A stretch of 64,000 bases of DNA from Candidatus Marinacidobacterales bacterium (GTDB lineage Bacteria > Acidobacteriota > Vicinamibacteria > Marinacidobacterales > SMYC01). The stretch lies in assembly GCA_965224085.1 (NCBI GenBank), contig CBDCYI010000005.1, forward strand, positions 512,001 through 576,000, written 5' to 3'. The notes under the pieces are model-generated. The model did no database searches. It was not told the DNA's origin and saw nothing but the letters and a program-made list of their open reading frames with translations. Made by a program: the position numbers and the translations under genes. Positions 5,853-53,995 of the stretch are shown piece after piece (position 1 is the stretch's first letter; every line of letters begins with the position of its first letter).

Positions 5853-6725
5853 TCAATGCCTCTGAACGAAATACGAGCCCGTTACGACAAGTAGCGCCCC
5901 GAAGAAGAGCTCGGGGCCTACTTGCTCCCCAAGGACGAGCCAGCTCAACAGAACGCCGAAGAGCGGCTGTGTCAGATACACGGTCGCGACTCGCGACGGC
6001 GGAAAGTTCTTTAGAAGCCACGTCTGCAAGAGAAAGGCGAAGCCGGCGATCACAATGCCTTGATAGAAGAGCGCCATTCCGAAGCGGGCCGTGTACTGTG
6101 TCGGGTCGGTCTCGAAGAGCGCGCTCGCGGCGAGAAAGCTCAACGTGCCAACGCCCGCTTGGGCAAGCAAGAGCTTTTCCACGGCGATCCCTTGCGCCGA
6201 GGCCGACAGGACGATCTGCCGCCCGCCGAGCAAAAGCGAGGAAACGACGAGTAGGCCGTCACCGAGAAGCGTTCCACCGTCGCCGCGAAGGCTCGTGATG
6301 AACACCACGACAACACCGCTATAGGCCACGATCGCGCCGAGCGCGCGCGTGCGTGTGAGCCTGTCACCAGGCACGAGAAAGTGAGCCAACACCGAGGTCC
6401 ATAACGGATAGGCACTCATGATGACCGCAGCGTGGCCGGCGCTCGTGTGGTTTTGTCCTATGTTCATGAAGGCGAGCTGGGAGGAGAACAGGCAACCGAG
6501 CCCGATGAGCGCCGTCCACTCATGGCGCTCCACGCGGAGCGACTGACGGCGGAAAGCCGCCGCCAGGAGCACGATGAGGCCGCCGAGCACGAAACGCATC
6601 CATCCCAGACGCAAGGGCGGGCAGTCCCGTAGCCCAGCTTTCACCGCGACGGGGTTGCCTCCCCAGAGTACGGAAAGCGACACCGCGAGCCCGAGCGCGC
6701 CTTTCGTCAGTTTTTCGTGTCTCAA
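5853..6725 (-). CDS. DMT/EamA family transporter
   Basis: About 10 hydrophobic segments, [34 protein letters not shown]; TTG start at 6725 inferred. Confidence 0.8.
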
Positions 6726-6765
6726 GCCCGCACATCTTATAGGATCGCCCGTCTGGAACTTGACG

Positions 6766-7002
6766 ATGGACGAAACCACAGAGCCGAATCTCGGCGCTTT
6801 TCGAGACGTTCCGTTCATGGGCGTCATCTTCGTCGTCCACGAAGCCATGAAGCGCGGCTTCGTGAACGGCCATCCCGACTGGAGCAATCTCGGTCAAGGC
6901 CAGCCCGAAATCGGCCCGATGGAGGGCACCCACGCGGATCAAAAACGTCCAAATCGAGCCCGAGGACCACGCCCACGGGCCTCTCGAAGGCGTTTCCGAG
7001 TT
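6766..7002 (+). pseudogene. PLP-dependent aminotransferase N-terminal remnant
   Basis: FRDVPFMGVIFVVHEA..WSNLGQGQPE, continuing after a frameshift near 6930 as RIKNVQIEPEDHAHGPLEGVSE; truncated at the 3' end of the convergent gene. Confidence 0.6.
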
Positions 7003-7007
7003 TGGCT

Positions 7008-9704
7008 TTAACCGATGGGCTCGCCGTCCGGGTCGAGGCGGATCACCTCGCCGAACTCGAGCGACGCCACATCTGCCGCAACCTTCTGCGCGTCACCGAT
7101 GACGAGCAAGATCGCATCTTCTGTGCTCAAGTACTTCGACGCAGCGGCTTCGAGCTGACCCCTCGTGACCGACTCGACCTTGTCCGTGTAGCGGCTCATC
7201 TCGTCGAGCGAAATCCCGTAGCCGTCGAGCTCAGCGACTTCCCCCGCCACTTGTCCGAGCGTCTCGAAGCGCTGGGCGAAACCGCGCACGAGATTCTCCT
7301 TCGCGTGTGCGAGCTCGTTATCCGTGACCGGCCGATTCCACGTGGCGAGCGCGTCGAACTCAGCGATCAACTGTTCGAGAGCGTCCTTGGTGACCGAGCT
7401 CTCCACGGGCGCAGAGCCCACGAGGATACTTTGAAGCGTCGCGAAGCGGATCGACGAGAAGGCGCCGTAGGTGAAGCCTTTGTCTTCACGAAGGTTCAAG
7501 TTGAGACGACCGGAGAAGCCGCCGCCGAGGATGTTGTTGAGCACTTCTAGGACGTAATAGTCCTCGGTGTTGCGTGCGGGCGCGAGCTTCGCGAGGCGGA
7601 GCTCGGATTGCGCCGAGCCCGGGCGGTCGACGAAATAAGTGACGCGCGACGGAGGGGCGACTTTCTCGACCTTTGCTTCACCGAAAGCCTCGACCTCCCA
7701 ATGCCCGAGCGAGCGCTCGGCGAGCGATTCTGCTTCCTCGAGACCGATATCACCGACCATGATGAGCACCGCGTTGCTCGGCGCGTAGTGCGTCAAATAG
7801 AACTGCTCGAGCGCGGCGCGCTGCATCCCTTCGATGGTTTTGTCTTCTCCTGAGATCGGCCAACCGTAGGGGTGGCTCTTTCCGAAAAGGGCCTTTCGGA
7901 TTGCCTTTCCGGCGATCGCGCCCGGGCTCACGCGGTCCTGGAGAAATCCGTCGAGCCGCTGCTTGCGACACCGCTCGAGTTCCTCACTGGGAAAGCCCGG
8001 ATGGAGGAGTACGTCCGTCATCAACTCGAGCGACTCGGGAAAGTGACGTTTCAGCGCGTCGAGCGACACCACGCTCCACTCGCGGCTTCCACCGCTCGAG
8101 AGATGACTTCCCATGCGGTCGAGCTCGGCTTCGATTTGAAGAGACGTTCGGCTCGTCGTCCCTTCTTCGAGCATCTCGGCGGTCATGCACGCGAGACCGC
8201 TTCTCTCGAAGCTCTCGGCGGTCGCGCCCACTTTCACTACGAGCGCCGTCGCGATTTTCGGAATCTCGCGACGTTCGACGACGTGCAGCTTGAGTCCGTT
8301 CCCAAGCTTCGTCGACGCGACTTCGGGCACGTGAAAGGCGGGGCTCGGCTTGAGCACCGGACTATTCTTACGATCGGGCTCATCGCGATCCTCGGTCGTC
8401 GAGGTCTCGGCAAGATAGCTCACCACGAGCCTCGGCTTGAGCAAGTAGCGCTTGGCCGCTTTTCGAAGATCCTTGGCCTGGACCTCTTGATATCTTTCGT
8501 AGTCCGCCTCGATGAAATCGGGCGAGCCGAGAAAGGTTTGATACATTGCGAGACGGTCCGCTTTCCCGCCGAAGCCTCCGATGCGCTCGAGCCCGGATAG
8601 GAAATCGAATTCCTGCCCCGCCTTGATGCGCTCCATCTCGTCATCCGTCGGCCCGTCCTTGGCGAGGCGGCGTATCTCTTCGTCGATGAGCTCCTCTAAT
8701 CTCGCGAGTGGCGTCCCAGGTCGAGCGGTAGCGACGATGCCGACGAGGCCGGCAATCTCGAGGCTGTAGTTGAAAGCGCTCACGTCCGACGCCAATTGCT
8801 CGTCGTAAACAAGCCGCTTGTACAGACGCGAGTTCTTGCCGTCCGCGAGCACTGTCGAAACCAGGTCGAGCGCGGCATCATCGGGCTCGAAGAAAGCGAC
8901 AGCAGGCCAAGCCATGTAAACACGTTCCTGCGGCACACGGTCGTAGACCGTAACGCGTCGGTCTGTGTCGAGCGTCACTTCGTAGCGCTCGGGACGCTCC
9001 AGCGGAGGGCTGGGCGGAAGCGGCGCGAAGTACTTTTCGATGAGCGCTCGGGTCGCCTCGCGATCGAAAGCTCCCGCGACGGTGAGGACACAATTGTTGG
9101 GCGCGTAGAACTTCTTGAAAAAGCCATGGATGTCGTCGAGAGACGCGCTTTCGACATCCTCCATGCTGCCGATGATGTGCCACGAGTAAGGATGGCCTTT
9201 GGGAAAGAGATTCTGGAAGAGCACTTCGACGGCAGTCCCGTAAGGAACGTTGTCCATGCTCTGGCGCCTTTCGTTCTTGACGACGTCGCGCTGGTTGTCG
9301 AGGTTCTCCTGCGTCACCGCGTCGAGGAGATAGCCCATCCGGTCGGACTCCGCCCAGAGCACGAGCTCGAGCGAGCCGGAGGGGACCGTCTCGAAATAAT
9401 TCGTGCGATCGAAATTCGTCGTGCCGTTGATGCCGCCTTGCGAGATATTCGCGCCGGCACGCTCCATGAGCGAGACGTACTCGCCTTTCACGTTGCGCGA
9501 GCCTTCGAACATCATATGCTCGAACAGATGAGCAAAACCGGTCTTACCGGGCTGCTCGTTCTTCGAGCCCACGTGGTACCAGAGATTGACGTGCGAGACC
9601 GGAAGCTTGTGGTCCTCGTGAAGGATAACCTGAAGGCCGTTCGGGAGGCGGTAGGTCTCGAAATCGATGTGAGGAACAACGCCAGCGTGCGTTTTCTGGC
9701 TCAA
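7008..9704 (-). CDS. M16 family zinc metallopeptidase (pitrilysin-like, two fused halves)
   Basis: GFAHLFEHMMF inverted zinc motif HxxEH; RTNYFE; VVKNERR; second half with LNLNLREDKGFTYG. Confidence 0.92.
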   Translation of the reverse strand: MSQKTHAGVVPHIDFETYRLPNGLQVILHEDHKLPVSHVNLWYHVGSKNEQPGKTGFAHLFEHMMFEGSRNVKGEYVSLMERAGANISQGGINGTTNFDRTNYFETVPSGSLELVLWAESDRMGYLLDAVTQENLDNQRDVVKNERRQSMDNVPYGTAVEVLFQNLFPKGHPYSWHIIGSMEDVESASLDDIHGFFKKFYAPNNCVLTVAGAFDREATRALIEKYFAPLPPSPPLERPERYEVTLDTDRRVTVYDRVPQERVYMAWPAVAFFEPDDAALDLVSTVLADGKNSRLYKRLVYDEQLASDVSAFNYSLEIAGLVGIVATARPGTPLARLEELIDEEIRRLAKDGPTDDEMERIKAGQEFDFLSGLERIGGFGGKADRLAMYQTFLGSPDFIEADYERYQEVQAKDLRKAAKRYLLKPRLVVSYLAETSTTEDRDEPDRKNSPVLKPSPAFHVPEVASTKLGNGLKLHVVERREIPKIATALVVKVGATAESFERSGLACMTAEMLEEGTTSRTSLQIEAELDRMGSHLSSGGSREWSVVSLDALKRHFPESLELMTDVLLHPGFPSEELERCRKQRLDGFLQDRVSPGAIAGKAIRKALFGKSHPYGWPISGEDKTIEGMQRAALEQFYLTHYAPSNAVLIMVGDIGLEEAESLAERSLGHWEVEAFGEAKVEKVAPPSRVTYFVDRPGSAQSELRLAKLAPARNTEDYYVLEVLNNILGGGFSGRLNLNLREDKGFTYGAFSSIRFATLQSILVGSAPVESSVTKDALEQLIAEFDALATWNRPVTDNELAHAKENLVRGFAQRFETLGQVAGEVAELDGYGISLDEMSRYTDKVESVTRGQLEAAASKYLSTEDAILLVIGDAQKVAADVASLEFGEVIRLDPDGEPIG

Positions 9705-9778
9705 CGAAACTCCTTCCAGTGGGGTGAACGTGTTCTCTATCTGCGGGCTCTCTATATAATACCGTTTCGGGAGGCATT

Positions 9779-10876
9779 ATGAAGCTCGCGATTTTAGCGT
9801 GGTTGGCCCTATCTCAGGAGTTTTTCACCGCCACGAAGTCGCTCGAGGAGATGGCGAACCGGCAGGCGGTCTTCGAGACGACGCGGGGCGAGTTCATCAT
9901 CGAGTTTTTACCCGAAAAAGCCCCGAATCACGTCGGCTACTTCATGAAGCTCATCGAGGAAGGCGCCTATAACGGCACCGCCTTCCATCGCCTCATCAAA
10001 TACGGCATCGTGCAAGGCGGCGACCCGAAGACCAAGGACGTGGACGCCGTCGCCGAATATGGTACCGGCGGTCTGGGCTTTTTGAAGCGCGAGCTCAGCG
10101 ACGAGTTGCATGTACGGGGCGCACTCTCGGCGGTTCAAGTCCCCGGCGACCCGGACAGCGCCGGTTCGCAGTTCTTCATCGTCGTCACCGATCAACCGGC
10201 TCTCGACGGCCAGTACACCGTCTTCGCCCGTGTCGTGGAAGGAATCAACCTCATCCAAACGATCTCGGAGACGGAAACGGGCGAGAACGGCCTCCCCACG
10301 GAGCGCATCGAGGTCGTAAACGTCACTCTGCGCGACAAGCCGCCACCGGAGATCCCGCCGTTCTCGACGGAGACCGTGGAGGAGCTCGCGACTTATCGCG
10401 CCGTGCTCGAGACGTCGTTCGGCGAGATCACCATGGAGCTCTTCTCCCACCTCGCACCGAATCACGTGCGGAACTTCCTGCGTCTCGCGAAGATTGGCCT
10501 CTATGACGGGGTCACGTTCCACCGTGTCGTGCCCGGTTTCGTGATCCAGACCGGGTTCGTCGAGACCCGCACCGAGCCGCCGTCAGAGCGCATCATGAAA
10601 TATTTCGGGAATCTAGAGCCCGAGTTCAATGACACGTCCCATGTAGCGGGCATCGTTTCTATGGCCCACGGCGAAGATCCCGCAAGCGCCAACTCTTCTT
10701 TTTTCATCGTCACCGGACCCGCGTCGCCGCTCGACAATTTGTACACCGTCTTCGGCCGCATCGTCGAGGGCATGGACGTCGTCCAGCAGATCGAAGCCGT
10801 GCCCGCAGAGAACGAAGCGCCACTCCAGCGCGTCGAGCTCACGACGGTCCGCATCGAGCGAATAGATCCACATTAG
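9779..10876 (+). CDS. Peptidyl-prolyl isomerase with two cyclophilin domains and signal peptide
   Basis: Two copies of APNHV..F...YxGxxFHR..Q.G and SQFFIV/SSFFIV..LD..YTVF. Confidence 0.9.
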   Translation: MKLAILAWLALSQEFFTATKSLEEMANRQAVFETTRGEFIIEFLPEKAPNHVGYFMKLIEEGAYNGTAFHRLIKYGIVQGGDPKTKDVDAVAEYGTGGLGFLKRELSDELHVRGALSAVQVPGDPDSAGSQFFIVVTDQPALDGQYTVFARVVEGINLIQTISETETGENGLPTERIEVVNVTLRDKPPPEIPPFSTETVEELATYRAVLETSFGEITMELFSHLAPNHVRNFLRLAKIGLYDGVTFHRVVPGFVIQTGFVETRTEPPSERIMKYFGNLEPEFNDTSHVAGIVSMAHGEDPASANSSFFIVTGPASPLDNLYTVFGRIVEGMDVVQQIEAVPAENEAPLQRVELTTVRIERIDPH

Positions 10877-46168: not shown

Positions 46169-47734
46169 CTACTTTGTTAGGGTGAAGCGGAAGCGGACTA
46201 CGTTCGTGGTTTTGGCGGGGACTCGGAAGACCACATGTCTTTGGTCTAGGGTTAGGACTTCGCCGCTTTCTATTCTTAGGGTGCCTGGGATCAGGTTCCG
46301 GGTGGTTTGGAAATTGAAGTGCCAGCGGCCAGGGTCGATGGGTTGAGTCAGGAGGCGGGCTTCTACGATGTTTTCGCCAGGTCGGGCGGTCAGGTGGTGT
46401 TGGTGCGGTGTGGTCCCACTCGTGGTTTCGGCGGTAGAGTCGTTTAGCGATATTTGGGCGCGTTGAGTTTGGTTGCCTTTTGGGAGCTCTAGGTGGCTCG
46501 TGAACGAGACTTCGGTGCGTTTTGTTCTCGACTCTGTTGCGGCGACGCTTTGGCCTTCGACCACGATGAACTGCGTGGTCGTGTCTTGCCTTCCCTCTCC
46601 GTTGGTCACGGTCAGTCTCACGCCGTAGATGTCGGGCTTTGCGAATTGTCGTGAGACAAAGACGCCTTCGGCGCCCGGACGGCCATCACCGAAGTCCCAC
46701 TCATAATTCGTGATCGCTGAGGCGCCACCGTCACGATCGCCAACCGAGCACTCCCCATTGAAGTTGATGGACTCGTTGGCCGCGATCCGTGGGGGGTCTG
46801 GCGTCGGGGTGAAACAGGCGACGGGAGTCGCGCGCACGCGGACGACGCGTGAGGTGTTGTCGGTTCTTTGTCCCTCGCTCACCGTGAGCCGGACCGAGTA
46901 GATCCCTCCCGGCCGAAAGAGATGCTCCACGCTCGAGCCCGTTGCGGTCTGCCCGTCTCCGAAATCCCAGGTGTAGGCCATAACACTCGCCGGCGTGGTG
47001 CACGATGCGTCGAAGAGGATCGTTTCTCCGGACTCGATATCCGGGATCGGGTCGGGCGTGAAACAAGCTCGAATCGCGCCGGGAGGTTCGGGTGTTGCTC
47101 CGCCATCCTGCGGTGACTCTTCTCCGGCGATCACGAGCGCAGCCACACCCGCCCCCGCGCCGGCAGCCGCAAGGACGCCTAGCGTCGTGCCAGACCACGT
47201 GCCACCCGCTCGAATCCCGTCGGAGCTGAAACCGTTCGGGAACTCGCTCTGATCGCTCGCCGTGCGTTCGACGCGAACGTCGTCGGTGACCGCGCTCGGG
47301 GCGGTTCGGGCGCCGGGGCAGCCCCCCATCAACACGTTGACCATGTGTACCGGCGACTGAAATTCGGGCGCGCTCGACTCAATAACATAGAGGACACGGG
47401 CGGCCTCGGGAAACGGCTTGGGAAGAGCGACTTGAAACAAAGCCCCGCTTGGAGGCCGGAACACGACCTCGTACCAACCTGAGTCCGTCTCCGCCTTGAA
47501 TCGAACTTTGAGTCCGCGAATCACCCGCGCCGCTTCCGCACTCGACGTCCGAGCTTCGATCAGCGGAAACGCTTCGGTATCCATGCACGGGGCGGGGCTG
47601 TGCTCGATCGGCTGCGCGAAGCTCGGTGAGCCTGCGGCCAAGAGAGCGACACTGAGGGTCACTAGGGTGATTCTGGGCGAAGCCGCGGTCAAGAGAGCGA
47701 CACCGGTAAGGGGCACTAGGGTGATTCTTGCCAT
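46169..47734 (-). CDS. Secreted PKD-domain protein
   Basis: Two PKD repeats (FDAS...YTWDFGDG...H...G.Y.VRLTV; YEWDFGDG...YGVRLTVTN); signal peptide. Confidence 0.82.
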   Translation of the reverse strand: MARITLVPLTGVALLTAASPRITLVTLSVALLAAGSPSFAQPIEHSPAPCMDTEAFPLIEARTSSAEAARVIRGLKVRFKAETDSGWYEVVFRPPSGALFQVALPKPFPEAARVLYVIESSAPEFQSPVHMVNVLMGGCPGARTAPSAVTDDVRVERTASDQSEFPNGFSSDGIRAGGTWSGTTLGVLAAAGAGAGVAALVIAGEESPQDGGATPEPPGAIRACFTPDPIPDIESGETILFDASCTTPASVMAYTWDFGDGQTATGSSVEHLFRPGGIYSVRLTVSEGQRTDNTSRVVRVRATPVACFTPTPDPPRIAANESINFNGECSVGDRDGGASAITNYEWDFGDGRPGAEGVFVSRQFAKPDIYGVRLTVTNGEGRQDTTTQFIVVEGQSVAATESRTKRTEVSFTSHLELPKGNQTQRAQISLNDSTAETTSGTTPHQHHLTARPGENIVEARLLTQPIDPGRWHFNFQTTRNLIPGTLRIESGEVLTLDQRHVVFRVPAKTTNVVRFRFTLTK

Positions 47735-50391
47735 GCGACACGAAACCCGACAACGCTTTCCTTGGCCTCGGGATGCAGAAAATTGCGACCCGCCGCCGAC
47801 AGATAGCGCTCGTCGTTGAAATAGGACCCGCCTTTCAACACACGCGTATGGGTCGTAAGGGGGCCCATGGGATTGACCGGCGTCGTGTTTTGCCGTGTTG
47901 GCGTCGAGCCGTCCTGGCACCACTCCCACACGTTGCCCGCCATATCGTAGAGCCCTTCCGGCGTCGCGCCGTCTTCAAAAGAGCCGACCGGCCTCGTGCC
48001 GCCATCCTGCCTGCGATTGACGTTGAAGTTGGCCGTGGCCGCGGTGGGAGCCCGCTCCCCCCAAGGATAAGGCCGCCCGGACGGGCCGCGGGCCGCGAAC
48101 TCCCACTGGGCCTCGGTGGGTAGATTGCCGCCGAGCCAAGCGGCATAGGCCATCGCTTCGTACCAGCTCACTCGCGTCACCGGATGGTCGTCGGGCGCTT
48201 CCGGATCATATTTCGGATCGAATCGCCGGTACTCGGAATTCGTAACCTCGGTGCGCTGAATGGAGAACCGGGAGACCCGCACCTGCCAGCCACCGTCATC
48301 CGCGGTCATCCCCAAGTCGAAGGCACCGCCCGCGAACGAGACACGCCGAAGCCCGACCGAACTGGGCGGTGCGGCGTAACCCGCCTCTTCGCAGAACCGC
48401 TTGACGAGCATGTTCCGAAGCTCCCGCTGTCGCTGTGTGGACGGCTCCCGTTCCAACGCGTCCAAAGCGACGAGAAGCGGGACGAACTCTCTCGCGGAGG
48501 CAAACCATCGCTCGTCGACACGCGCCAAAACTGCGTTCGAATCCTGGCTTCCCCTCACGAGGATATCCAAAGCTCCCACGACTTCCCCCGGGTCGCGGCT
48601 AGAAAGCCGTATCCGAAGAGCCTCGACCAGAGCATTGTTCGTCTCTTGAACTTGTTTTTCGCTGTCCTCGATCTCTTCTTGACGCTCCTCTGCAAGGCTC
48701 CGTTGCCGATCCGCTAGATTTCTCTGGAGTCGCGCGTCCTCGGCCGCGCTCTCGGCATCCGCCCGCGCGCTCACCGCCCCCTGCCGCTGCAAAACGGCCT
48801 CCTCACGCTGCGCATCGGCGATGCCCTTCAAGCGGGACGCTTCGGCCGCGGCTTGCTCGGCAAGCTCGCGCGTGTTCTCCGCCTCTCGCTGCTGACGTTC
48901 GGCCTCACGCCGCTCGGCTTCCGCGATGCCACGTTGCTCTGAAGCTTCCGACGCAGCTTTCTCGGCAGCCTCTTTCGCCGCCGCGAGCGCATCGGCTTGC
49001 TTCTGCGCGAAATAGGCCCAGGCCATGCCGCCGAGTGCACCCACCGCGAGCACGAAAACAAGGAATAGAATAGCGGCTGTCTTCAGGCTCTTTCGGTGAC
49101 GCTCCTCCACTTCGCGCACCGCCTCGGCTTCTCGCGCGCGACGGCGGCGCTCGTCCCGGCTAGTCGTCACTACTCCGGTGAGAAGGTCGTGGGTGAGCTC
49201 CAGAAGCTGCAAGCGCCCTCGCTCCTCGACACGCACGAGCCGCCGTCGTACCAGCTCTTCGATGTCGTCCTTCGTCACTCCCGGAACGCTCAAAGCTTCG
49301 TCATACACGACAAGATTGCGAAAGCCGCGCCTCGTGAGAAGTTTTTCCTCGACGAAAGTGCGAACCGACTCGCTGAGATCCGCGACGCTACGCTCGTAGA
49401 AACCGTGGAGGACCTGCTCTTGCGAACCCTCGACCATCTCGCCAGTGATCCGGGACTCGCGCCGTTCCTGGCGCTGGCTGTTCAGCTCTTGGCAGACGAC
49501 GCTCAAGAGTGCAGGCTCGACTTCGAGGTCAACGAGCTCCTCGTCTTTCTTCGCAGCGGCGACGAAACGCACGATGCTTTCGGCGACGTCAGGAGCGATG
49601 ATCTCCGGTGCCTGGTTGACCACCTGAAGGGCAGCCACACCGTTCATGCGTCCGAGACGAAAACGGTTATGGGCGATTCTGCCCATGCGCTCCCCGAGAC
49701 CTTCGAGGTCCGGAAGAAAATCCTCGCGGAGCGTCAAAAGAACTTTGTATCGGTGGCGGTCGAAAGCAAAACGGTCTGCTTCGCTCTTCTCCTGATTCGG
49801 GGGCTCCATCTCGAGCCGTGACTTCAGCTGCACCGGCGGCCGCCCTTCGACGAGGTCAGCGAGCTCAATGATGAACGCGTGCGTCGCTTGAGAGCGCGCC
49901 GGGTCGCGCTCTCCGAACGTGAAGACCTCTTCGAACTGGTCAAAGACGAGCAGAGGCCTCAAGACCTGATGCCGTGGGCTCCAAAACTCGACGTCGCTAC
50001 GGTGAAAATATTCCCAGAGCGTTTCTTTCGTGAGCGGCTCGGGTGCTTCGACGCGCGCATGGGCCGTCGCCTGCACGACGGCGTTCTTCACTTGAGCGAT
50101 AAGATTGGGTTTACTAGGCGAATAGTCTAGACGGATATAGACGGGGAACACGTTCTCGCGCCGAAGACGCGGGAAGAGTCCAGCCTGAAGAATCGAGGAC
50201 TTGCCGAGTCCCGAAGGCGAGAAGAGGATGGTTAGACGCTCGCGCTCCACCCGCCGAACGAGCATCTCGGACTCGAACTTGCGCCCGTGAAAATACCTCC
50301 AGTCGTCCTCGCCAAAGGGCAGCAGCCCCGGCCACGGATTTTCGTCGCTGAGCCCGACCCCGGCCGGAAGTGAGGAGGATTCGACGTTCAT
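47716..50391 (-). CDS. STAND-class (nSTAND1-like) ATPase - TM - coiled coil - FGE-sulfatase/SUMF1 domain protein
   Basis: NPWPGL..F...FHGR, SPSGLGKSS Walker A, LLVFDQFEE Walker B, TLREDF; TM helix; TEVTN.EY, PVT.VSW.EA, LPTEAQWEFAAR, GLYDMAGNVWEW, GGS, GFR. Confidence 0.85.
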   Translation of the reverse strand: MNVESSSLPAGVGLSDENPWPGLLPFGEDDWRYFHGRKFESEMLVRRVERERLTILFSPSGLGKSSILQAGLFPRLRRENVFPVYIRLDYSPSKPNLIAQVKNAVVQATAHARVEAPEPLTKETLWEYFHRSDVEFWSPRHQVLRPLLVFDQFEEVFTFGERDPARSQATHAFIIELADLVEGRPPVQLKSRLEMEPPNQEKSEADRFAFDRHRYKVLLTLREDFLPDLEGLGERMGRIAHNRFRLGRMNGVAALQVVNQAPEIIAPDVAESIVRFVAAAKKDEELVDLEVEPALLSVVCQELNSQRQERRESRITGEMVEGSQEQVLHGFYERSVADLSESVRTFVEEKLLTRRGFRNLVVYDEALSVPGVTKDDIEELVRRRLVRVEERGRLQLLELTHDLLTGVVTTSRDERRRRAREAEAVREVEERHRKSLKTAAILFLVFVLAVGALGGMAWAYFAQKQADALAAAKEAAEKAASEASEQRGIAEAERREAERQQREAENTRELAEQAAAEASRLKGIADAQREEAVLQRQGAVSARADAESAAEDARLQRNLADRQRSLAEERQEEIEDSEKQVQETNNALVEALRIRLSSRDPGEVVGALDILVRGSQDSNAVLARVDERWFASAREFVPLLVALDALEREPSTQRQRELRNMLVKRFCEEAGYAAPPSSVGLRRVSFAGGAFDLGMTADDGGWQVRVSRFSIQRTEVTNSEYRRFDPKYDPEAPDDHPVTRVSWYEAMAYAAWLGGNLPTEAQWEFAARGPSGRPYPWGERAPTAATANFNVNRRQDGGTRPVGSFEDGATPEGLYDMAGNVWEWCQDGSTPTRQNTTPVNPMGPLTTHTRVLKGGSYFNDERYLSAAGRNFLHPEAKESVVGFRVAWQESP

Positions 50392-51728
50392 GCAAGACTC
50401 GCGCTGCGATAGCTACGCTGAAACTGTACGACCTTCTCCACGAACTCGGAGCTCGGCCCGCCGTGCGGGAGGCTCTCCCACGGGGGCGCGCCGAAGTCGT
50501 TCGGGAGCACGTCTTCTGACGTCCGGACATCATCGACCGCAACCGGAAGAATGAACGGTCCCGAAGGCACTAGTCCTTTAGCCTCCAATATAGCCTCGAC
50601 CCAGTCGGGGCGGAAAAAGCGTCTCCGCGCGGTCGAAGCCCGCCGCGAAAGCACCGGCACGAAGAGCGCACAGCTGGTGACCACGTTTCGGAGCTTTCGC
50701 TCCCACTTGCCGCCCATATCCAAATCGTCATTGCCGAAGATGACATCCACTCCGGCCCGATCGAGAGCGTCGCGAATCGACTCGGCCGCGTCGCGATCGG
50801 CCTCCGCGTAGCTCACGAACACCGCCCCGGATTGCATGCCGGACGAGGCGACCAACGACAAGATGGAAGACGGCGGCTCGGACTCCTCGATCGGCGCGGA
50901 ATCGTGGACACGCCGGGAAAGCTCGTCGATGAAATCCAAAGCGCCCGCAGCGTGGAAGATCTTCGCGCCTCCTCCGAAATGCTGCAGCAAAACAACGTCT
51001 CCTCGCACGGAATTCTGTCCCCTCGTGGGGACCAAGTCGACTTTCGCCTCCAGGCGGCGGCCGCTCTTCGTATGACCCACGAAGAAGTTGATGAGCCAAT
51101 CGTCGAAACGGCTCCCAAGGACCAGAAGGTTGCTTCTCTTGAGCTTGTCCAGCAAGAGATTCGGAGCGTCCTCGCCTTTCGACTGCAAGAGCCGGACGAA
51201 CTCGCCAATATCTTCCCGGGTAACAGCGTAGCTCTGCGGCGTCGCCGAGAGACGGCCGAGTAGATGAAACACCGCGGGCCGGTTCAAGCGGTCGAACTCC
51301 CGAGGAAGATCCTGTTTGTCTGTGGGCGCATGGGTAAAAACGAGCGTTTGCCGCTGCTCGTCGAACCGTTCCTGATTGATCGCCCGCTCGATCAAGAAGT
51401 CAAACGTTGTCGTGACGTAAAGCTTGAAACTCGTGATCCGAGCAAGCTTCAACAGTGGCTCGGGCACCGCAAGCCCGTCGAGCTCCCGCAGCACGACGCG
51501 AAGACCGTGGTAGAGGTCCTGAACGTCGTTTGAGCCAGCAAGATAGCGCCGCGCCACCTCAAAGAGCTCTTCCCTGGCAGGCAAATCCCGCGCTGACACA
51601 CCCAAATACTCGGCAAGCCGCTCCGCAAGAAACGGATAAAGAAGCCTCTGGTCCCCCTCGTTCTCCACGAAAAGAAGATCCTGCCCCACCACCGGGACCA
51701 CCGACTCCTCTTCAACGAGCTGGATCAA
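50388..51728 (-). CDS. SIR2-like + TIR domain protein
   Basis: N-terminal VVPVVG, YVTTTFD, VFHLLG, LLVLG..F.DW (SIR2_2-like); C-terminal VFVSYA..D...CALFVPVLS...FILPVAVD (TIR_2); start uncertain (in-frame LFWEQL continues upstream). Confidence 0.75.
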   Translation of the reverse strand: MIQLVEEESVVPVVGQDLLFVENEGDQRLLYPFLAERLAEYLGVSARDLPAREELFEVARRYLAGSNDVQDLYHGLRVVLRELDGLAVPEPLLKLARITSFKLYVTTTFDFLIERAINQERFDEQRQTLVFTHAPTDKQDLPREFDRLNRPAVFHLLGRLSATPQSYAVTREDIGEFVRLLQSKGEDAPNLLLDKLKRSNLLVLGSRFDDWLINFFVGHTKSGRRLEAKVDLVPTRGQNSVRGDVVLLQHFGGGAKIFHAAGALDFIDELSRRVHDSAPIEESEPPSSILSLVASSGMQSGAVFVSYAEADRDAAESIRDALDRAGVDVIFGNDDLDMGGKWERKLRNVVTSCALFVPVLSRRASTARRRFFRPDWVEAILEAKGLVPSGPFILPVAVDDVRTSEDVLPNDFGAPPWESLPHGGPSSEFVEKVVQFQRSYRSASLA

Positions 51729-51867
51729 CTGCTCCCAAAAAAGCTCAGAATGAACGATCGCAAACCTCCTCCACGCTTCTAGTGCTCAATGCTCGCTCTC
51801 TCTTGACCTTGCCCCGAGCTCGCCCGGCGTGCCGTCGGCCCATTCGGGCCGGAGGAGCGAAGCGAGC

Positions 51868-52009: not shown

Positions 52010-53995
52010 CTAACGCGGCGCCCCTTCAATCCGCCCAGCCCCCTCGTCTACAAGGCTCTGATACCCCACATCCCCAAGGCTCCGATAAAGAGCAAGCGCC
52101 TCTCGACGCGCGCCCTGCTCTTCGAGAGCGCGCGCCCTGTTGTAAACGAGGTCAGAAGCATCATACGGCGCAACCGGATCGATGTTTCCCAACGCCTCTT
52201 CGAACGCGGCCATCGCACCCGCGAAATCGCGCTGTTCGAAAAGCTGAAGGCCGCGCTCAAGGGCGGTGTCTTCATGCTCCAAAAGAACATTTCTTCTGAA
52301 ATAAACGGGCCCGCCCGGGAAGGGATCGACAAGGGCGCTCCTGACTTCGACGAGCTCGCCATCGAGGACGGCCGCCGCACAATTTTCGTACACGACCTCA
52401 CCGCCGCGCACGAGACGGAGCCCGCTGCAGTCCTCTCCGGCGGCGTAGTAAAAAGCAGCGTCATCGCCCACCGCTTCGACACCGCGAGGAACGTCATCCT
52501 CCGGAGCGAGAAAGACGAGCTTCAAATCGTGACCATCATCCTCGAGCACGAAATTGAAGTGACGCAACCCATCGCTCGTTTGAAACGGTCGCTGCATCAG
52601 AACCTGTCGCGGATCGCTCTCGATGACGTGCACGAAGGAAAAGCCTCGAGCTGGCGGGGCCGTGCGGCGTACGTTCGCGTCGATCTTCCGGACCTCTTCG
52701 AGAAGACGATCACCGATATCGGTCCCGAGAAGTGCGAGCGTCCGGGTCTTCGAAGCGCTGGCGCCTTCGAGTTTAGAGAGGGCGGCCATGACTTCGAAGC
52801 CTACGTCGCGGCTTCGCGACCCGCGCGCAACGCGCTGGGCCAATCGCCGCAGCTGTTCGTAAAGATCGTCGAGTGGCGCGGGTCCCGCCTCGAGCTTCTC
52901 GATCTGGTCGATCCATTCGTACAGCGCGCGCTGCTCGTTGACTTGCCGCTCGAGCGTCACGATAGGAACACTCGCGTGCTCCGGTCTCTCCTCGGTCGGC
53001 AGGTCCGGATCATCGAGGAAGTGAAAGATCGCTTCCACGCGCCGGCGGATCTCGCTCGCGCGAAGATCCGGATACATGGGAATGCGGATCTGCGTGATCC
53101 CGCCGCGAGCGACGACGCGAAGCTCGCCATCCCCGTAAAACCCAACGCTCGGCGGCAACCCCGCGAGACGCCCAACGCCCACCGGGATCGCAAGCAGACG
53201 AACGATGCGCCGAGCGATCGGAAGCTCCGATTCTGGAACGAAAGCAGCGACAAAGAAAGGCGCGTCACGCTTCCTAGCTTCCGTGACGGGGACCATGAGA
53301 CCATCGAGCTGCTCGCTGCAATAACCGCAGGCGTCCACAGGAACGTAGACGACAAGACGCCCTCCGAGCTTGTAGAGCTCGCCTGTGTTCAAATTTCCCG
53401 CATCGGTCACGACTTGGAACGAGGGGAAAGCGCCCGGAAGCAGCTCGATGTCGGGGAACTTACTCTGAAGCTCGGGAAAACGCCGCGCGTCGAGGCTCGC
53501 TTTGAGCGCATTGCGCGAGCGGAACAACCCCGACTCGAGGAGTCTTGCTTCGAGGCCGATGCGGTCCGCTTCCGGACTCAGATAAGCATCGAGCACAAGC
53601 GCGACGCGCTCGGCCCCGTCCAAGTCTTCGTCGTCCGCCATCAAAAGAAAAATCTCGGGGTCGAGTTTCATCTTCGCCGCGCGCCTATAGGCTTTGCGCG
53701 AAGCGCGCCATTCTTCCTGGGCGGCCAACGCGTCACCAAGGGTTCGAAAATAGGCCGCTCGCCGTTCACGATAGGTCTCGCGCGCCTCTAGAATCATGTC
53801 CTCGAACAAGAGGCCTTTGTCGGGACGCGATTCGAGCTCTAGCTCGGGGAGGAAGCTCAACGAAAGCGCGAGCGCCTCGCGCGCCTCGGCTTCAGCACCG
53901 GCTGCATCTGAAGCTTCGAGTTTCTGGCGCGCATTCTCATGTGCCGTATCGGCGCTGGCTTGAACGAGAAGCGCCAGAACGACGAGGGTATTCAC
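52010..53995 (-). CDS. Secreted TPR protein with thioredoxin-like CxxC segment
   Basis: Signal peptide, N- and C-terminal TPR-like helices, central DACGYCSEQL. Confidence 0.6.
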   Translation of the reverse strand: MNTLVVLALLVQASADTAHENARQKLEASDAAGAEAEAREALALSLSFLPELELESRPDKGLLFEDMILEARETYRERRAAYFRTLGDALAAQEEWRASRKAYRRAAKMKLDPEIFLLMADDEDLDGAERVALVLDAYLSPEADRIGLEARLLESGLFRSRNALKASLDARRFPELQSKFPDIELLPGAFPSFQVVTDAGNLNTGELYKLGGRLVVYVPVDACGYCSEQLDGLMVPVTEARKRDAPFFVAAFVPESELPIARRIVRLLAIPVGVGRLAGLPPSVGFYGDGELRVVARGGITQIRIPMYPDLRASEIRRRVEAIFHFLDDPDLPTEERPEHASVPIVTLERQVNEQRALYEWIDQIEKLEAGPAPLDDLYEQLRRLAQRVARGSRSRDVGFEVMAALSKLEGASASKTRTLALLGTDIGDRLLEEVRKIDANVRRTAPPARGFSFVHVIESDPRQVLMQRPFQTSDGLRHFNFVLEDDGHDLKLVFLAPEDDVPRGVEAVGDDAAFYYAAGEDCSGLRLVRGGEVVYENCAAAVLDGELVEVRSALVDPFPGGPVYFRRNVLLEHEDTALERGLQLFEQRDFAGAMAAFEEALGNIDPVAPYDASDLVYNRARALEEQGARREALALYRSLGDVGYQSLVDEGAGRIEGAPR

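Follow-up and report, generated by a model that had tools for sequence, protein, structure and literature searches.

Two overlapping genes in the window (the whole stretch of DNA analysed here, 64,000 nucleotides of a Candidatus Marinacidobacterales genome; contig CBDCYI010000005.1, positions 512,001 to 576,000) raise the question of whether a bacterial STAND NTPase may act as a receptor across the membrane, with its sensor outside the cytoplasm and a separate SIR2/TIR protein recruited as its effector, as the first-pass annotation had proposed.

Gene pair and neighbouring genes

Both open reading frames in the ORF list, g1 and g2, lie on the minus strand where the first-pass annotation had placed them, and a third gene, g3, overlaps the end of g2:

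50388-51728, minus strand: g1, SIR2-like plus TIR protein (SIR2_2 + TIR_2), 446 amino acids counted from TTG
47716-50391, minus strand: g2, nSTAND1 NTPase, single span, helical stalk and FGE-fold head, 891 amino acids
50388-50391, minus strand: ATGA overlap, ATG being the start of g2 and TGA the stop of g1 (sequence read directly)
46169-47734, minus strand: g3, secreted protein with two PKD domains (Pfam PKD_4 and PKD; start and overlap read directly)

Bases 50391-50388 read ATGA, which confirms the overlap reported earlier, and the identical 4-nt overlap of g1 and g2 is present in Paraburkholderia caribensis MBA4. The true start of g1 is uncertain, as its open frame extends to 51784, beyond the TTG at 51728, and the frame ahead of this TTG codes for conserved N-terminal residues but contains no ATG, GTG or TTG at which they could start.

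The start of g3 lies 16 nt ahead of the g2 stop, with the two genes overlapping by 19 nt, and its product has a predicted signal peptide. In the window and at loci L004, L005, L008, L006 and L077-L081 (fragments in L029), a g3 homologue comes immediately after g2; g3 goes with the pair all through the window's acidobacterial family and is probably the third operon gene there. The other neighbours in the window, judged from their translations only, are ABC-type exporter, aminotransferase and lytic-transglycosylase-like genes, and the gene order around the pair is kept only within the genus.

Domain architecture of g2

The order STAND ATPase, transmembrane helix, coiled coil and FGE domain, which had been proposed for g2, is borne out by Pfam, hydrophobicity and AlphaFold2:

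49174-50337, minus strand: nSTAND1 NTPase module (g2 residues 19-406; Pfam PF20703)
50194-50214, minus strand: Walker A, residues 60-66 (S60, G61, G63, K64 and S66 invariant in 75 aligned sequences)
49927-49941, minus strand: Walker B, residues 151-155 (D151, Q152, F153, E154 and E155 invariant in 75 aligned sequences)
49021-49077, minus strand: predicted single transmembrane helix, residues 439-457 (Kyte-Doolittle mean 2.51)
48382-49020, minus strand: Ala/Glu/Arg-rich helical stalk (458-595) and small helical bundle (601-670), from AlphaFold2
47731-48342, minus strand: FGE-sulfatase/C-type-lectin-like fold head, non-catalytic, residues 684-887 (Pfam, Foldseek)

The NTPase module belongs to nSTAND1 (residues 19-406, E 7.2e-28, 98.7 bits versus a cut-off of 27.1; PF20703) and contains intact Walker A and B motifs (GxGKS and DQFEE), and of 8000 candidates scored, 1569 are homologues of g2 at E ≤ 0.001. 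The AlphaFold2 model of g2 has a mean pLDDT of 83.8, with values below 50 at residues 1-11 and 464-499. A single modelled helix (403-480) runs through the hydrophobic span and is followed by a second helix (492-595), the bundle (601-670) and then the FGE fold, the stalk comprising about 140 residues. Among 28 orthologues outside the genus, identity is 68-79% in the NTPase, 52-73% in the stalk and 51-66% in the head, the last being moderate and not hypervariable.

The head matches the FGE-sulfatase family (residues 684-887, E 8.9e-45; PF03781), with FGE structures as its best Foldseek matches (28-31% identity), and it also matches PorK/GldK and PvdO. As aligned with the S. coelicolor and human enzymes, the two copper-binding cysteines of the formylglycine-generating enzyme correspond to Asn and Leu in g2, and the head, in which both catalytic cysteines are missing, is non-catalytic. 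In the 6.87-Mb genome the final 300 nt of g2 have no match other than their own position, so that there is no DGR template repeat; no DGR reverse transcriptase is located near g2, and the RVT_1 matches of the genome are multi-copy elements elsewhere. The module behind the span differs among relatives, and 30 C-terminal regions were classified with Pfam as follows:

WD40: 13 loci
TPR: 6 loci
FGE: 4 loci
Ribosomal_L12_C: 2 loci
Sel1: 1 locus
No Pfam match: 4 loci

The head is the swappable part between relatives, attached to a constant core. The ribosomal L12 C-terminal domain (L012 and L013) and a GmrSD_N nuclease-family domain located after WD40 (L016) are odd heads for a periplasmic location.

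Membrane span and predicted topology

Of the 39 loci with enough sequence, 38 retain a hydrophobic span behind the NTPase: 36 reach a Kyte-Doolittle (KD) value of at least 1.8 and two have values of 1.61 and 1.47, while the remaining locus is frameshifted. No second span at or above the 1.8 threshold was found in 33 relatives, which were scanned also at a lower threshold; four weaker extra segments have KD values of 1.46-1.64, one of them within the NTPase module and two in WD40/TPR regions. The 15 residues preceding the span contain on average 6.1 Lys + Arg versus 2.9 after it, and the count is greater before than after the span in 34/36 loci, while a few relatives (L033 and L040) are equally basic on either side of the span. 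From the single span and this positive-inside bias, the FGE head is predicted to lie outside the cytoplasm, and the external sensor of the first-pass annotation is likewise a prediction.

The same helix may be read otherwise, as part of an all-cytoplasmic STAND protein in which it is a latent membrane-inserting effector or anchor, driven in on oligomerisation, and in which the heads sense intracellular invaders. FGS sensors are treated as intracellular by Kaur et al. 2021 (PMC8195603), and in the literature the sensors of cytoplasmic STAND proteins are usually WD40 or TPR modules. The L12 C-terminal and GmrSD_N modules are typically cytoplasmic as well, basic residues flank the helix on both sides in some relatives, and a helix bundle gathered by the oligomer would stand in for the missing effector, g1 being apparently non-enzymatic. 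However, helices whose KD mean is 2.0-3.2 are normally inserted co-translationally, the basic bias before the helix is nearly general, and the helix lies between NTPase and sensor in every intact relative, whereas the effector helices of known STANDs sit at an end. The FGE-fold relatives PorK/GldK and PvdO are envelope proteins, which together with the signal peptide of g3 also argues against a cytoplasmic head. This all-cytoplasmic arrangement is considered improbable, and a head outside the cytoplasm is preferred.

Catalytic residues of g1 and its predicted contact with g2

g1 contains a SIR2_2 domain (residues 103-223, E 5e-11, 43.3 bits versus a cut-off of 24.5) and a TIR_2 domain (residues 303-400, E 2.8e-13, 50.9 bits versus a cut-off of 28), as identified with Pfam:

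51060-51422, minus strand: SIR2-like domain core of g1 (residues 103-223), with non-canonical Thr108 and Leu157 (Pfam and ThsA profile alignment)
50529-50822, minus strand: TIR domain of g1 (residues 303-400), with invariant Trp376 and with Ile380 at the catalytic Glu position (Trp+4)

The closest PDB structures to the AlphaFold2 model of g1 (mean pLDDT 89.5, pTM 0.80) are ThsA, EfAvs5 SIR2-STAND and DSR2 as found with Foldseek, and the modelled fold is ThsA-like with two domains. As aligned by profile with ThsA chains (8bto, 6lhx and 7uxt), the catalytic Asn column of SIR2 is occupied by Thr108 in g1 and the catalytic His column by Leu157 (Leu, Met or Phe across the g1 family), while the catalytic Glu column of TIR, defined with AbTir and PdTIR chains, is occupied by Ile380 (Ile or Leu in the alignment). 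In BcThsA both N112 and H152 are needed for activity, as is E208 in AbTir, where E208A is inactive; the roles of AbTir W204 and E208 are described by Manik et al. Column counts find the canonical Asn and His each in 0/101 and the Glu in 7/101 of the g1 family sequences, and the three residues in 5, 0 and 14 of 131 more distant representatives, respectively.

Other NAD-pocket residues are kept in the g1 family, namely Ser306 (99/101), Trp376 (101/101), Asp110 (99/101) and Gly158 (101/101). His155, two residues ahead of the canonical His position, is present in 86/101 sequences and is Gln, Tyr or Ser in the other 15, while position 375, adjoining Trp376, is acidic in 97/101 and 131/131 g1 sequences, so that a relocated catalytic residue is possible. 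These residues would suit an abortive infection system in which the STAND oligomer activates g1 as an NADase through SIR2 and/or TIR, leading to NAD+ depletion or a cADPR-type signal, the more so as both domains exceed their Pfam cut-offs and the fold is nearest to the NADases ThsA, Avs5-SIR2 and DSR2. Against this stand the family-wide replacement of the residues equivalent to ThsA N112/H152 and AbTir E208, the column counts above and the variability of His155. As g1 is devoid of the canonical SIR2 Asn/His and TIR Glu, it is unlikely to be a plain NADase effector, and such an abortive infection mechanism has little probability. With neither domain retaining canonical catalytic residues, the operon holds no recognisable killing or signalling enzyme. 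The separate SIR2/TIR effector proposed earlier is real as a separate protein with both domains, but recruitment of an NAD-depleting effector is doubtful.

Prediction of a g1-g2 complex gave a score of 0.50, versus 0.00 for the best of three controls. The threshold applied passes 58 of 80 solved complexes and 2 of 110 mismatched pairs, and the passes scoring 0.60 or less comprise 7 of the 80 solved complexes and both passing mismatches. At least 46% of contacts are common to the runs, and the partner pLDDT is 73 or higher. The model weakly suggests that g1 binds g2.

Pairing and distribution

Among 45 loci found through g1 alone, 44 have an nSTAND1 gene as their immediate downstream neighbour, encoded on the same strand at a projected distance of -13 to +168 nt, and because of this recurrence the adjacency of g1 and g2 is above chance. 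In the reciprocal survey, a close homologue of the g2 NTPase was found in 4/300 other genomes of the phylum, with g1 upstream in 4/4. The identities of g1 and of the g2 NTPase to their counterparts in the window co-vary (Spearman 0.87, 44 loci which are not independent), and only g1 and the nSTAND1 gene are recurrent across the 45 loci. The g1-g2 pair is an obligate unit, and the constant STAND partner with swappable sensors, for which a survey of g1 homologues had been suggested, was found. Of the three outcomes named beforehand as refuting the first-pass annotation (a pair not conserved together, a match to a named system, a cytoplasmic FGE domain), none was observed.

Clustered at 50% identity, the g1 family has 537 representatives at E ≤ 1e-30. 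In the window's family, the module is present in 15/18 other genomes as a single copy per genome, while none was found in 42 genomes that belong to other families in this order and class; within the family it resembles a stable set of genes, inherited vertically and kept in single copy. Other loci are located in metagenome-assembled genomes of Verrucomicrobiota, Gemmatimonadota-type bacteria, Nitrosomonas, Chitinophagaceae and Cyanobium, and also in Paraburkholderia, and this scatter across phyla implies horizontal spread. Neighbours matching PADLOC models among 121 flanking genes of 34 loci are patatin effectors (3), NsnB (2), AriA/GajA (2) and DrmC (1), and some loci hold a second pair or tandem g1 paralogues.

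The regular occurrence within the family bears on a non-immune function, in which the module would be a device for signalling across the envelope or for maintaining it, reading for example self glycan, peptidoglycan or the surface state, and working in either direction; in one variant the periplasmic head would be controlled inside-out by the cytoplasmic nucleotide state read by g1. The single copy per genome, the conserved third gene, which encodes a secreted PKD protein, the housekeeping-like neighbours (from translations, and recurrent only within the genus), the good conservation of g2 in NTPase and head, the missing catalytic effector residues and the lack of a PADLOC system match are all consistent with such a device. 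However, the module is patchy across the phylum, its loci in distant phyla imply horizontal spread, wholesale swapping of the binding module on a constant core is a habit of conflict systems, and defence-model neighbours and duplicated pairs or g1 genes occur at some loci. A non-immune device is considered rather unlikely.

Proposed mechanism and significance

The preferred reading, to which about an even chance is given, is that the conserved two-gene module (three genes in the window's family) acts as a membrane-spanning STAND (NLR)-type receptor. g2 would be anchored in the inner membrane, its NTPase facing the cytoplasm and its stalk and head extending into the periplasm. A ligand would bind the head, possibly jointly with the secreted PKD protein g3, and the signal would be relayed via stalk and span to NTP-dependent oligomerisation of the cytoplasmic NTPase, which may then engage g1. 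The output of g1 would most likely be assembly-driven, as the SIR2 Asn/His and TIR Glu are missing, and g1 may serve as a scaffold, an adaptor, a nucleotide-binding module or a site of non-canonical chemistry other than ordinary NAD+ hydrolysis. A putative conflict or surveillance role, the sensing of foreign or abnormal things in the envelope, is proposed from the kinds of domains present, the uneven distribution among phyla and the exchange of heads.

The STAND/NLR-like defences known from bacteria detect phage proteins within the cytoplasm. If the sensor of g2 sits behind the membrane span, STAND machinery would survey the periplasm or cell surface, a bacterial layout nearer to the surface-immunity receptors of animals and plants. 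g1 keeps the SIR2 and TIR folds and pocket residues, with the canonical catalytic residues gone in nearly all members, and is therefore a test case for whether such bacterial domains can signal simply by assembling or by binding a ligand. Besides being large, the g1 family is experimentally tractable, since it is found in at least one cultivated soil bacterium, P. caribensis MBA4.

Comparison with known systems

The coupling of STAND to FGE, part of the system proposed in the first-pass annotation, is already known: Kaur, Iyer, Burroughs and Aravind (eLife 2021, PMC8195603) described STAND ATPases with FGE-fold sensors, nSTAND1 included, where FGS and NPCBM are intracellular invader-sensing lectin-like domains, and STAND-FGE sensors have been met again in later surveys. 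The published STAND-FGS proteins share with g2 the nSTAND1 clade, a C-terminal FGE fold as presumed ligand binder, and the mixing and matching of sensor and NTPase among relatives. However, they carry an N-terminal effector or effector-associated adaptor on the NTPase, are described as intracellular sensors and are often DGR-linked (PMC8195603), whereas g2, with its nSTAND1 match from residue 19 onwards and no further Pfam domain (effector or adaptor) found at the N-terminus, has no N-terminal domain and possesses a hydrophobic span between NTPase and head. The partner here is a separate SIR2-like/TIR protein, and the genome has no template repeat; no mention of the g1/g2 arrangement was found in the main text of PMC8195603. 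DGR-diversified CLec/FGE-fold STAND 'antigen sensors' of multicellular bacteria were described by Dore et al. (PNAS 2024, PMC10907252), with nSTAND1 or NACHT NTPases, a C-terminal CLec/FGE fold and one target predicted to be periplasmic. In contrast, no DGR is present here and the head is fixed and moderately conserved in the organism family; in the text of PMC10907252 the SIR2-like/TIR partner is absent ('sir2' occurs 0 times).

Avs/AVAST and bNACHT proteins resemble the pair in combining a STAND NTPase, a repeat or other sensor and an NAD-related domain, and the SIR2-like domain of g1 matches the SIR2 fold of Avs5 (SIR2-STAND; PDB 9jap and 9nc9). Each Avs protein is described as one polypeptide of the cytoplasm that carries its effector as an N-terminal fusion, whereas the NAD-related domains here are on a separate protein and devoid of catalytic residues, and the sensor is behind a predicted membrane span; no Avs or NLR model in PADLOC matches the pair. 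ThsA of Thoeris (7uxt, 6lhx, 8bto and 8wc0) provides the best matches to g1 over both domains (E 1e-9 to 2e-8), the N-terminal half of g1 aligns to ThsA by profile at E 5e-5, and a TIR domain is present in both systems. However, N112 and H152 of ThsA are Thr and Leu/Met/Phe in g1, the second domain is TIR and not the SLOG of ThsA, this TIR has no catalytic Glu, and the partner gene encodes a STAND NTPase and not a separate TIR sensor. An assignment to Thoeris was rejected on the missing SLOG, the TIR fused to the SIR2-like domain, the STAND NTPase neighbour and the lack of a ThsA/ThsB match in PADLOC. In PADLOC-DB v2.0.0 the pair has no full-length match to any named anti-phage system, in line with the novelty suggested earlier, and only weak domain-level matches are found (SAVED_TIR, 7.6e-6, g1 residues 295-351; PDC-S66, 4.5e-4; LmuB, 0.0091, g2 coiled coil).

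Some bacterial Ser/Thr kinases combine one membrane span with an extracytoplasmic FGE, WD40, TPR or PASTA module, and animal Toll-like receptors use non-enzymatic TIR adaptors. Both resemble the predicted layout of an outside binding module, one span and a cytoplasmic signalling module, and as in Toll-like receptors the TIR of g1 may be an assembly adaptor and not an enzyme; the engine here is a STAND NTPase, the TIR is on a separate SIR2-like protein, and homology is claimed for the shared domains only. A further reading, that these modules are widespread transmembrane NLR-like receptors with swappable extracytoplasmic heads, in which a STAND NTPase signals to a dead SIR2/TIR adaptor as a counterpart of Toll-like receptor logic and which would be the first envelope-side pattern recognition by STAND proteins, is tentative and falls clearly short of an even chance. 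The pair is an undescribed variant of STAND conflict systems, for which we infer a transmembrane topology and an assembly-driven output.

Gene content and domain architecture

The best-supported reading of this locus, which in our estimate could equally well prove right or wrong, is that g2 encodes a STAND receptor that is bitopic and carries its head outside the cytoplasm, partnered by the non-canonical SIR2-like/TIR protein g1. Its significance hinges mostly on the topology of g2 and on how g1 acts. The genes are arranged as follows.

50388-51728, minus strand: g1, open frame of 446 aa from a TTG; SIR2_2 (residues 103-223; Pfam E 5e-11) and TIR_2 (residues 303-400; Pfam E 2.8e-13)
47716-50391, minus strand: g2, open frame of 891 aa; nSTAND1 (residues 19-406; Pfam E 7.2e-28) and FGE-sulfatase (residues 684-887; Pfam E 8.9e-45)
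50391-50388, minus strand: overlap of g1 and g2, ATGA, read from the sequence
46169-47734, minus strand: g3, starting with an ATG 16 nt before the g2 stop; signal peptide and two PKD domains (Pfam)
52010-53995, minus strand: upstream 661-aa protein with a signal-like N-terminus and a weak TPR match

The g2 protein contains a single strong hydrophobic stretch (residues 439-457; Kyte-Doolittle mean 2.51), which in the AlphaFold2 model (75 homologues as input; mean pLDDT 83.8) lies inside a single helix of residues 403-480, followed by a helix (492-595), a small helical bundle (601-670) and the FGE fold, with pLDDT below 50 across residues 464-499. The Walker A residues S60, G61, G63, K64 and S66 and the Walker B residues D151, Q152, F153, E154 and E155 are invariant in the 75 aligned sequences. 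The first-pass annotation had described two overlapping genes, the second encoding a STAND ATPase, a transmembrane helix, a coiled coil and an FGE domain, and in view of the open frames, domains, span, model and Walker motifs this description is correct.

About 17 N-terminal residues conserved in most g1 homologues are encoded in frame 5' of the TTG at 51728 (window 51729-51787, minus strand). The region upstream of the window's g1 carries a 9-nt insertion and offers no ATG, GTG or TTG after the TGA at 51785-51787, while L005, a locus from another genome retrieved by homology to g1, has a GTG at the corresponding place. The window's g1 either has a non-canonical start or is a copy shortened at its N-terminus.

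The pair as a unit

A search with a 9-sequence g1 alignment against one genome per species identified 45 loci, whose record titles name Acidobacteriota-labelled MAGs (Thermoanaerobaculia, Vicinamibacterales, Holophagae, Terriglobia) and other MAGs (Verrucomicrobiae, Longimicrobiaceae/Gemmatimonadales, Nitrosomonas, Steroidobacteraceae, Rhodanobacteraceae, Chitinophagaceae, Cyanobium). A g2 NTPase homologue lies directly 3' of g1 on the same strand in 44 of the 45 (projected gap -13 to +168 nt), a count which is independent of g2 because the loci were retrieved via g1 alone; the lone exception, L048, contains just a fragment of g1. Reciprocally, in a phylum-wide sample of 300 other genomes, 4 contain a close g2 NTPase homologue, and g1 lies upstream in all four; g1 is rare in the phylum. 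Clusters built from every non-overlapping ORF in the 45 loci show no recurrent genes besides g1 and g2, and a larger conserved operon is rejected on that ground. Identity to the window's g1 co-varies with identity to its g2 NTPase (Spearman 0.87 over 44 related loci, hence descriptive), the NTPase being more conserved than g1 in 44/44. A search of proteins of 782-2230 residues revealed no fusion of g1 with g2, which is weak evidence. The pair is a genuine, widespread and obligate unit.

Complex prediction (g1 with g2 residues 1-435, custom alignments) gives a score of 0.50 versus 0.00 for the best of three controls, with at least 46% of contacts agreeing between runs and a partner pLDDT of at least 73. 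In the benchmark, 58 of 80 solved complexes reached the mark, as did 2 of 110 mismatched pairs, and passing scores of 0.60 or less came from just 7 of those 80 complexes plus both passing mismatches. The predicted contact has weak support and adds little to the genomic linkage.

Three loci, L016 (2355-14323), L021 (9329-15120) and L031 (3737-11512), contain two g1 paralogues in tandem and/or another nSTAND1 gene beside the pair, so that the module is locally duplicated. In the cultivated Paraburkholderia caribensis MBA4, the pair is present with the ATGA overlap on a 2.56-Mb replicon (L087; NZ_CP012748.1 371172-386356; ORFs 6689-8329 and 8326-10308), encoding a SIR2_2 + TIR_2 protein and then a 660-aa nSTAND1 protein with a hydrophobic span behind the NTPase at about residues 433-451. 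The PLSDB table annotates no features there, and this pair is a possible experimental entry point.

Predicted membrane span and interchangeable heads

The span was surveyed in 39 loci with a g2 frame extending past the NTPase, leaving out L005 and L008 (near copies of L004) and L015, L019, L046 and L048 (cut or broken). A span with a Kyte-Doolittle value of at least 1.8 lies within a few tens of residues behind the NTPase in 36 of the 39; L013 and L018 have a weaker one (1.61 and 1.47), and L029 is frameshifted there. No second segment of at least 1.8 was detected in the 33 relatives scanned at a lower threshold, which revealed four weaker segments (1.46-1.64): one lies inside the NTPase module and three outside, two of the latter in WD40/TPR regions. 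The mean number of Lys and Arg per 15 residues is 6.1 before the span versus 2.9 after it; of 36 loci, 34 have the higher count before the span and two have equal counts. As judged from these sequences, the predicted membrane span is a family trait.

Scanning 30 C-terminal regions against Pfam assigned the following heads.

Modules behind the span in 30 C-terminal regions
WD40 propellers: 13 loci, one then with GmrSD_N
TPR: 6 loci, one weakly
FGE-sulfatase: 4 loci, one with Lcl_C before it
Ribosomal L12 C-terminal domain: 2 loci
Sel1: 1 locus
No recognised Pfam module: 4 loci

BLAST to the window's head adds an FGE head in five further loci (L004, L005, L006, L008 and L031). A constant partner with swappable sensors among g1 homologues, the pattern for which the first-pass annotation had proposed a survey, is thus found, and the g2 heads are swappable between relatives. 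Compared with 28 orthologues from beyond the genus, the window's NTPase is 68-79% identical, its stalk 52-73% and its head 51-66%. Both copper-binding cysteines of FGE are replaced in the window's head, aligning to Asn and Leu, and the head is non-catalytic.

That the STAND protein is instead all-cytoplasmic, its helix being a latent membrane effector, appears quite unlikely beside the charge bias across the span. On its side may stand L016 (10751-14320), in which GmrSD_N (DUF262-type; E 8.5e-19) follows WD40 propellers within one open frame, beyond the single span; this domain, odd in the periplasm, may be either a separate in-frame gene or an argument against the outside topology. The ribosomal protein L7/L12 C-terminal domain behind the span in L012 (10691-11275) and L013 (4090-6069), with E 1.8e-24 and 6e-24, respectively, is also unexpected at a predicted extracytoplasmic position.

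Diversification of the FGE head by a DGR is rejected, as the genome is without a template repeat, and a search for a second copy of the last 300 nt of g2 in its own genome returned the self-match alone. The 22 RVT_1 matches in this genome (e.g. G000:C4:254494-255123, C5:2152940-2153569 and C11:1216096-1216725) are multi-copy elements away from g2, many being identical copies with open frames of 468 aa or about 495-534 aa, some in adjacent pairs. These copies represent a retroelement, of a group II intron-like or similar kind, that has no connection with g1-g2.

Active sites of g1

The AlphaFold2 model of g1 (101 sequences; mean pLDDT 89.5, pTM 0.80) finds its best match among solved structures in ThsA, followed by Avs5 SIR2-STAND, DSR2 and KomC. 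In profile alignments, ThsA chains match the N-terminal half (E 5e-5), with ThsA TTNYD over the g1 family (T/S)TTFD and ThsA His-Gly over (L/M/F)-Gly. The whole-protein profile aligns the TIR domain to AbTir and PdTIR, with their conserved Trp over Trp376 and their catalytic Glu (Trp+4) over Ile380. The roles of ThsA N112 and H152 and of AbTir W204 and E208 are described, E208A being inactive (available part of Manik et al.). These positions were read in a close set of 101 g1 homologues (36-88% identical) and a distant set of 131 cluster representatives (31-50% identical; 400-520 aa) among 143 newly numbered proteins, 150 being listed.

Canonical residues in g1 homologues (close set; distant set)
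SIR2 Asn position: 0/101 (Thr 99, Ser 2); 5/131
SIR2 His position: 0/101 (Leu 44, Met 30, Phe 27); 0/131
TIR Glu position: 7/101; 14/131

Extending through both sets, the loss of the canonical residues is ancient and concerns the whole family, and the fold and pocket are still under constraint. The pocket residues Gly15, Asp110, Gly158, Asp173, Ser306, Asp311, Ser361 and Trp376 are retained, position 375 is acidic in 97/101 and 131/131, and His155 is present in 86/101. A plain NADase abortive-infection system, with the match to ThsA in its favour and the replaced catalytic positions against it, is therefore rather improbable; g1 may be a module for binding or assembly, or else an enzyme whose chemistry has been relocated.

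Distribution and genomic neighbourhood

In the acidobacterial family of the source organism, 15 of 18 other genomes carry a single copy of g1; the 42 genomes from other families of this order and class carry none. The order of the genes flanking the pair is preserved within the genus only. The upstream 661-aa TPR-like gene is rejected as a member of the module, because just g1 and g2 recur and its synteny with the pair is genus-limited. A g3 homologue lies 3' of g2 in all family loci with downstream sequence (the window, L004, L005, L008, L006 and L077-L081; fragmented in L029), which suggests a three-gene operon in which g3 may partner the FGE head in the periplasm; none was found beside pairs outside this family among the 45 loci. 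The parts of g3 on either side of the PKD domains have no domain assigned, and the sole ESM Atlas result is a 0.75 lead to an unnamed acidobacterial cluster.

A non-immune envelope signalling device is an unlikely but tenable alternative to the receptor reading. Compatible with it, the window's neighbours, as read from translations without a family-library search, include ABC-type exporters, an aminotransferase and a lytic-transglycosylase-like gene. Elsewhere, 127 flanking genes were picked from 34 other loci and, six being dropped for size, 121 were scanned: some match PADLOC models, namely patatin effectors (3), NsnB (2), AriA/GajA (2), DrmC (1), PDC-M55A (2) and HEC-03B (2), and others are housekeeping genes, e.g. 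GatB and Kdo transferase. In a library of 1.84 billion, the g1 family numbers 4165 cluster representatives at E <= 0.001, falling to 2507 at <= 1e-10 and to 537 at <= 1e-30. No match to the pair was found in 50,697 phage records, and the single match among 72,556 plasmid records is on the 2.56-Mb replicon.

Comparison with known systems

The first-pass annotation had held that a lack of hits to defence systems would support novelty. PADLOC-DB v2 gives only short domain-level matches for the pair, and in NCBIfam no model passes its cut-off. No description of a SIR2-like/TIR + nSTAND1-TM pair was found in the available parts of the literature, supplementary tables, which may list it, apart; nor was any use of the term 'SIR2-TIR' found in the searched literature. 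The EACC1 two-gene membrane system is rejected as a counterpart, consisting of a small TM protein and a caspase protein (available part of Kaur 2020). The available part of Kaur et al. 2021 (PMC8195603) defines nSTAND1 and describes STAND-FGS systems that sense inside the cell, bear effectors or adaptor domains at the N-terminus and are linked to DGRs; a span between NTPase and FGS is unmentioned in that part of the text. Catalytically inactive TIR domains are discussed as multimerisation modules in ParA-STAND systems (October 2026 preprint), and FGE-type sensors are included among defence-associated STANDs in the available part of a 2026 survey. DGR-diversified CLec-STAND targets are also described, for one of which a periplasmic location is predicted (available part of Dore et al. 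2024, PMC10907252).
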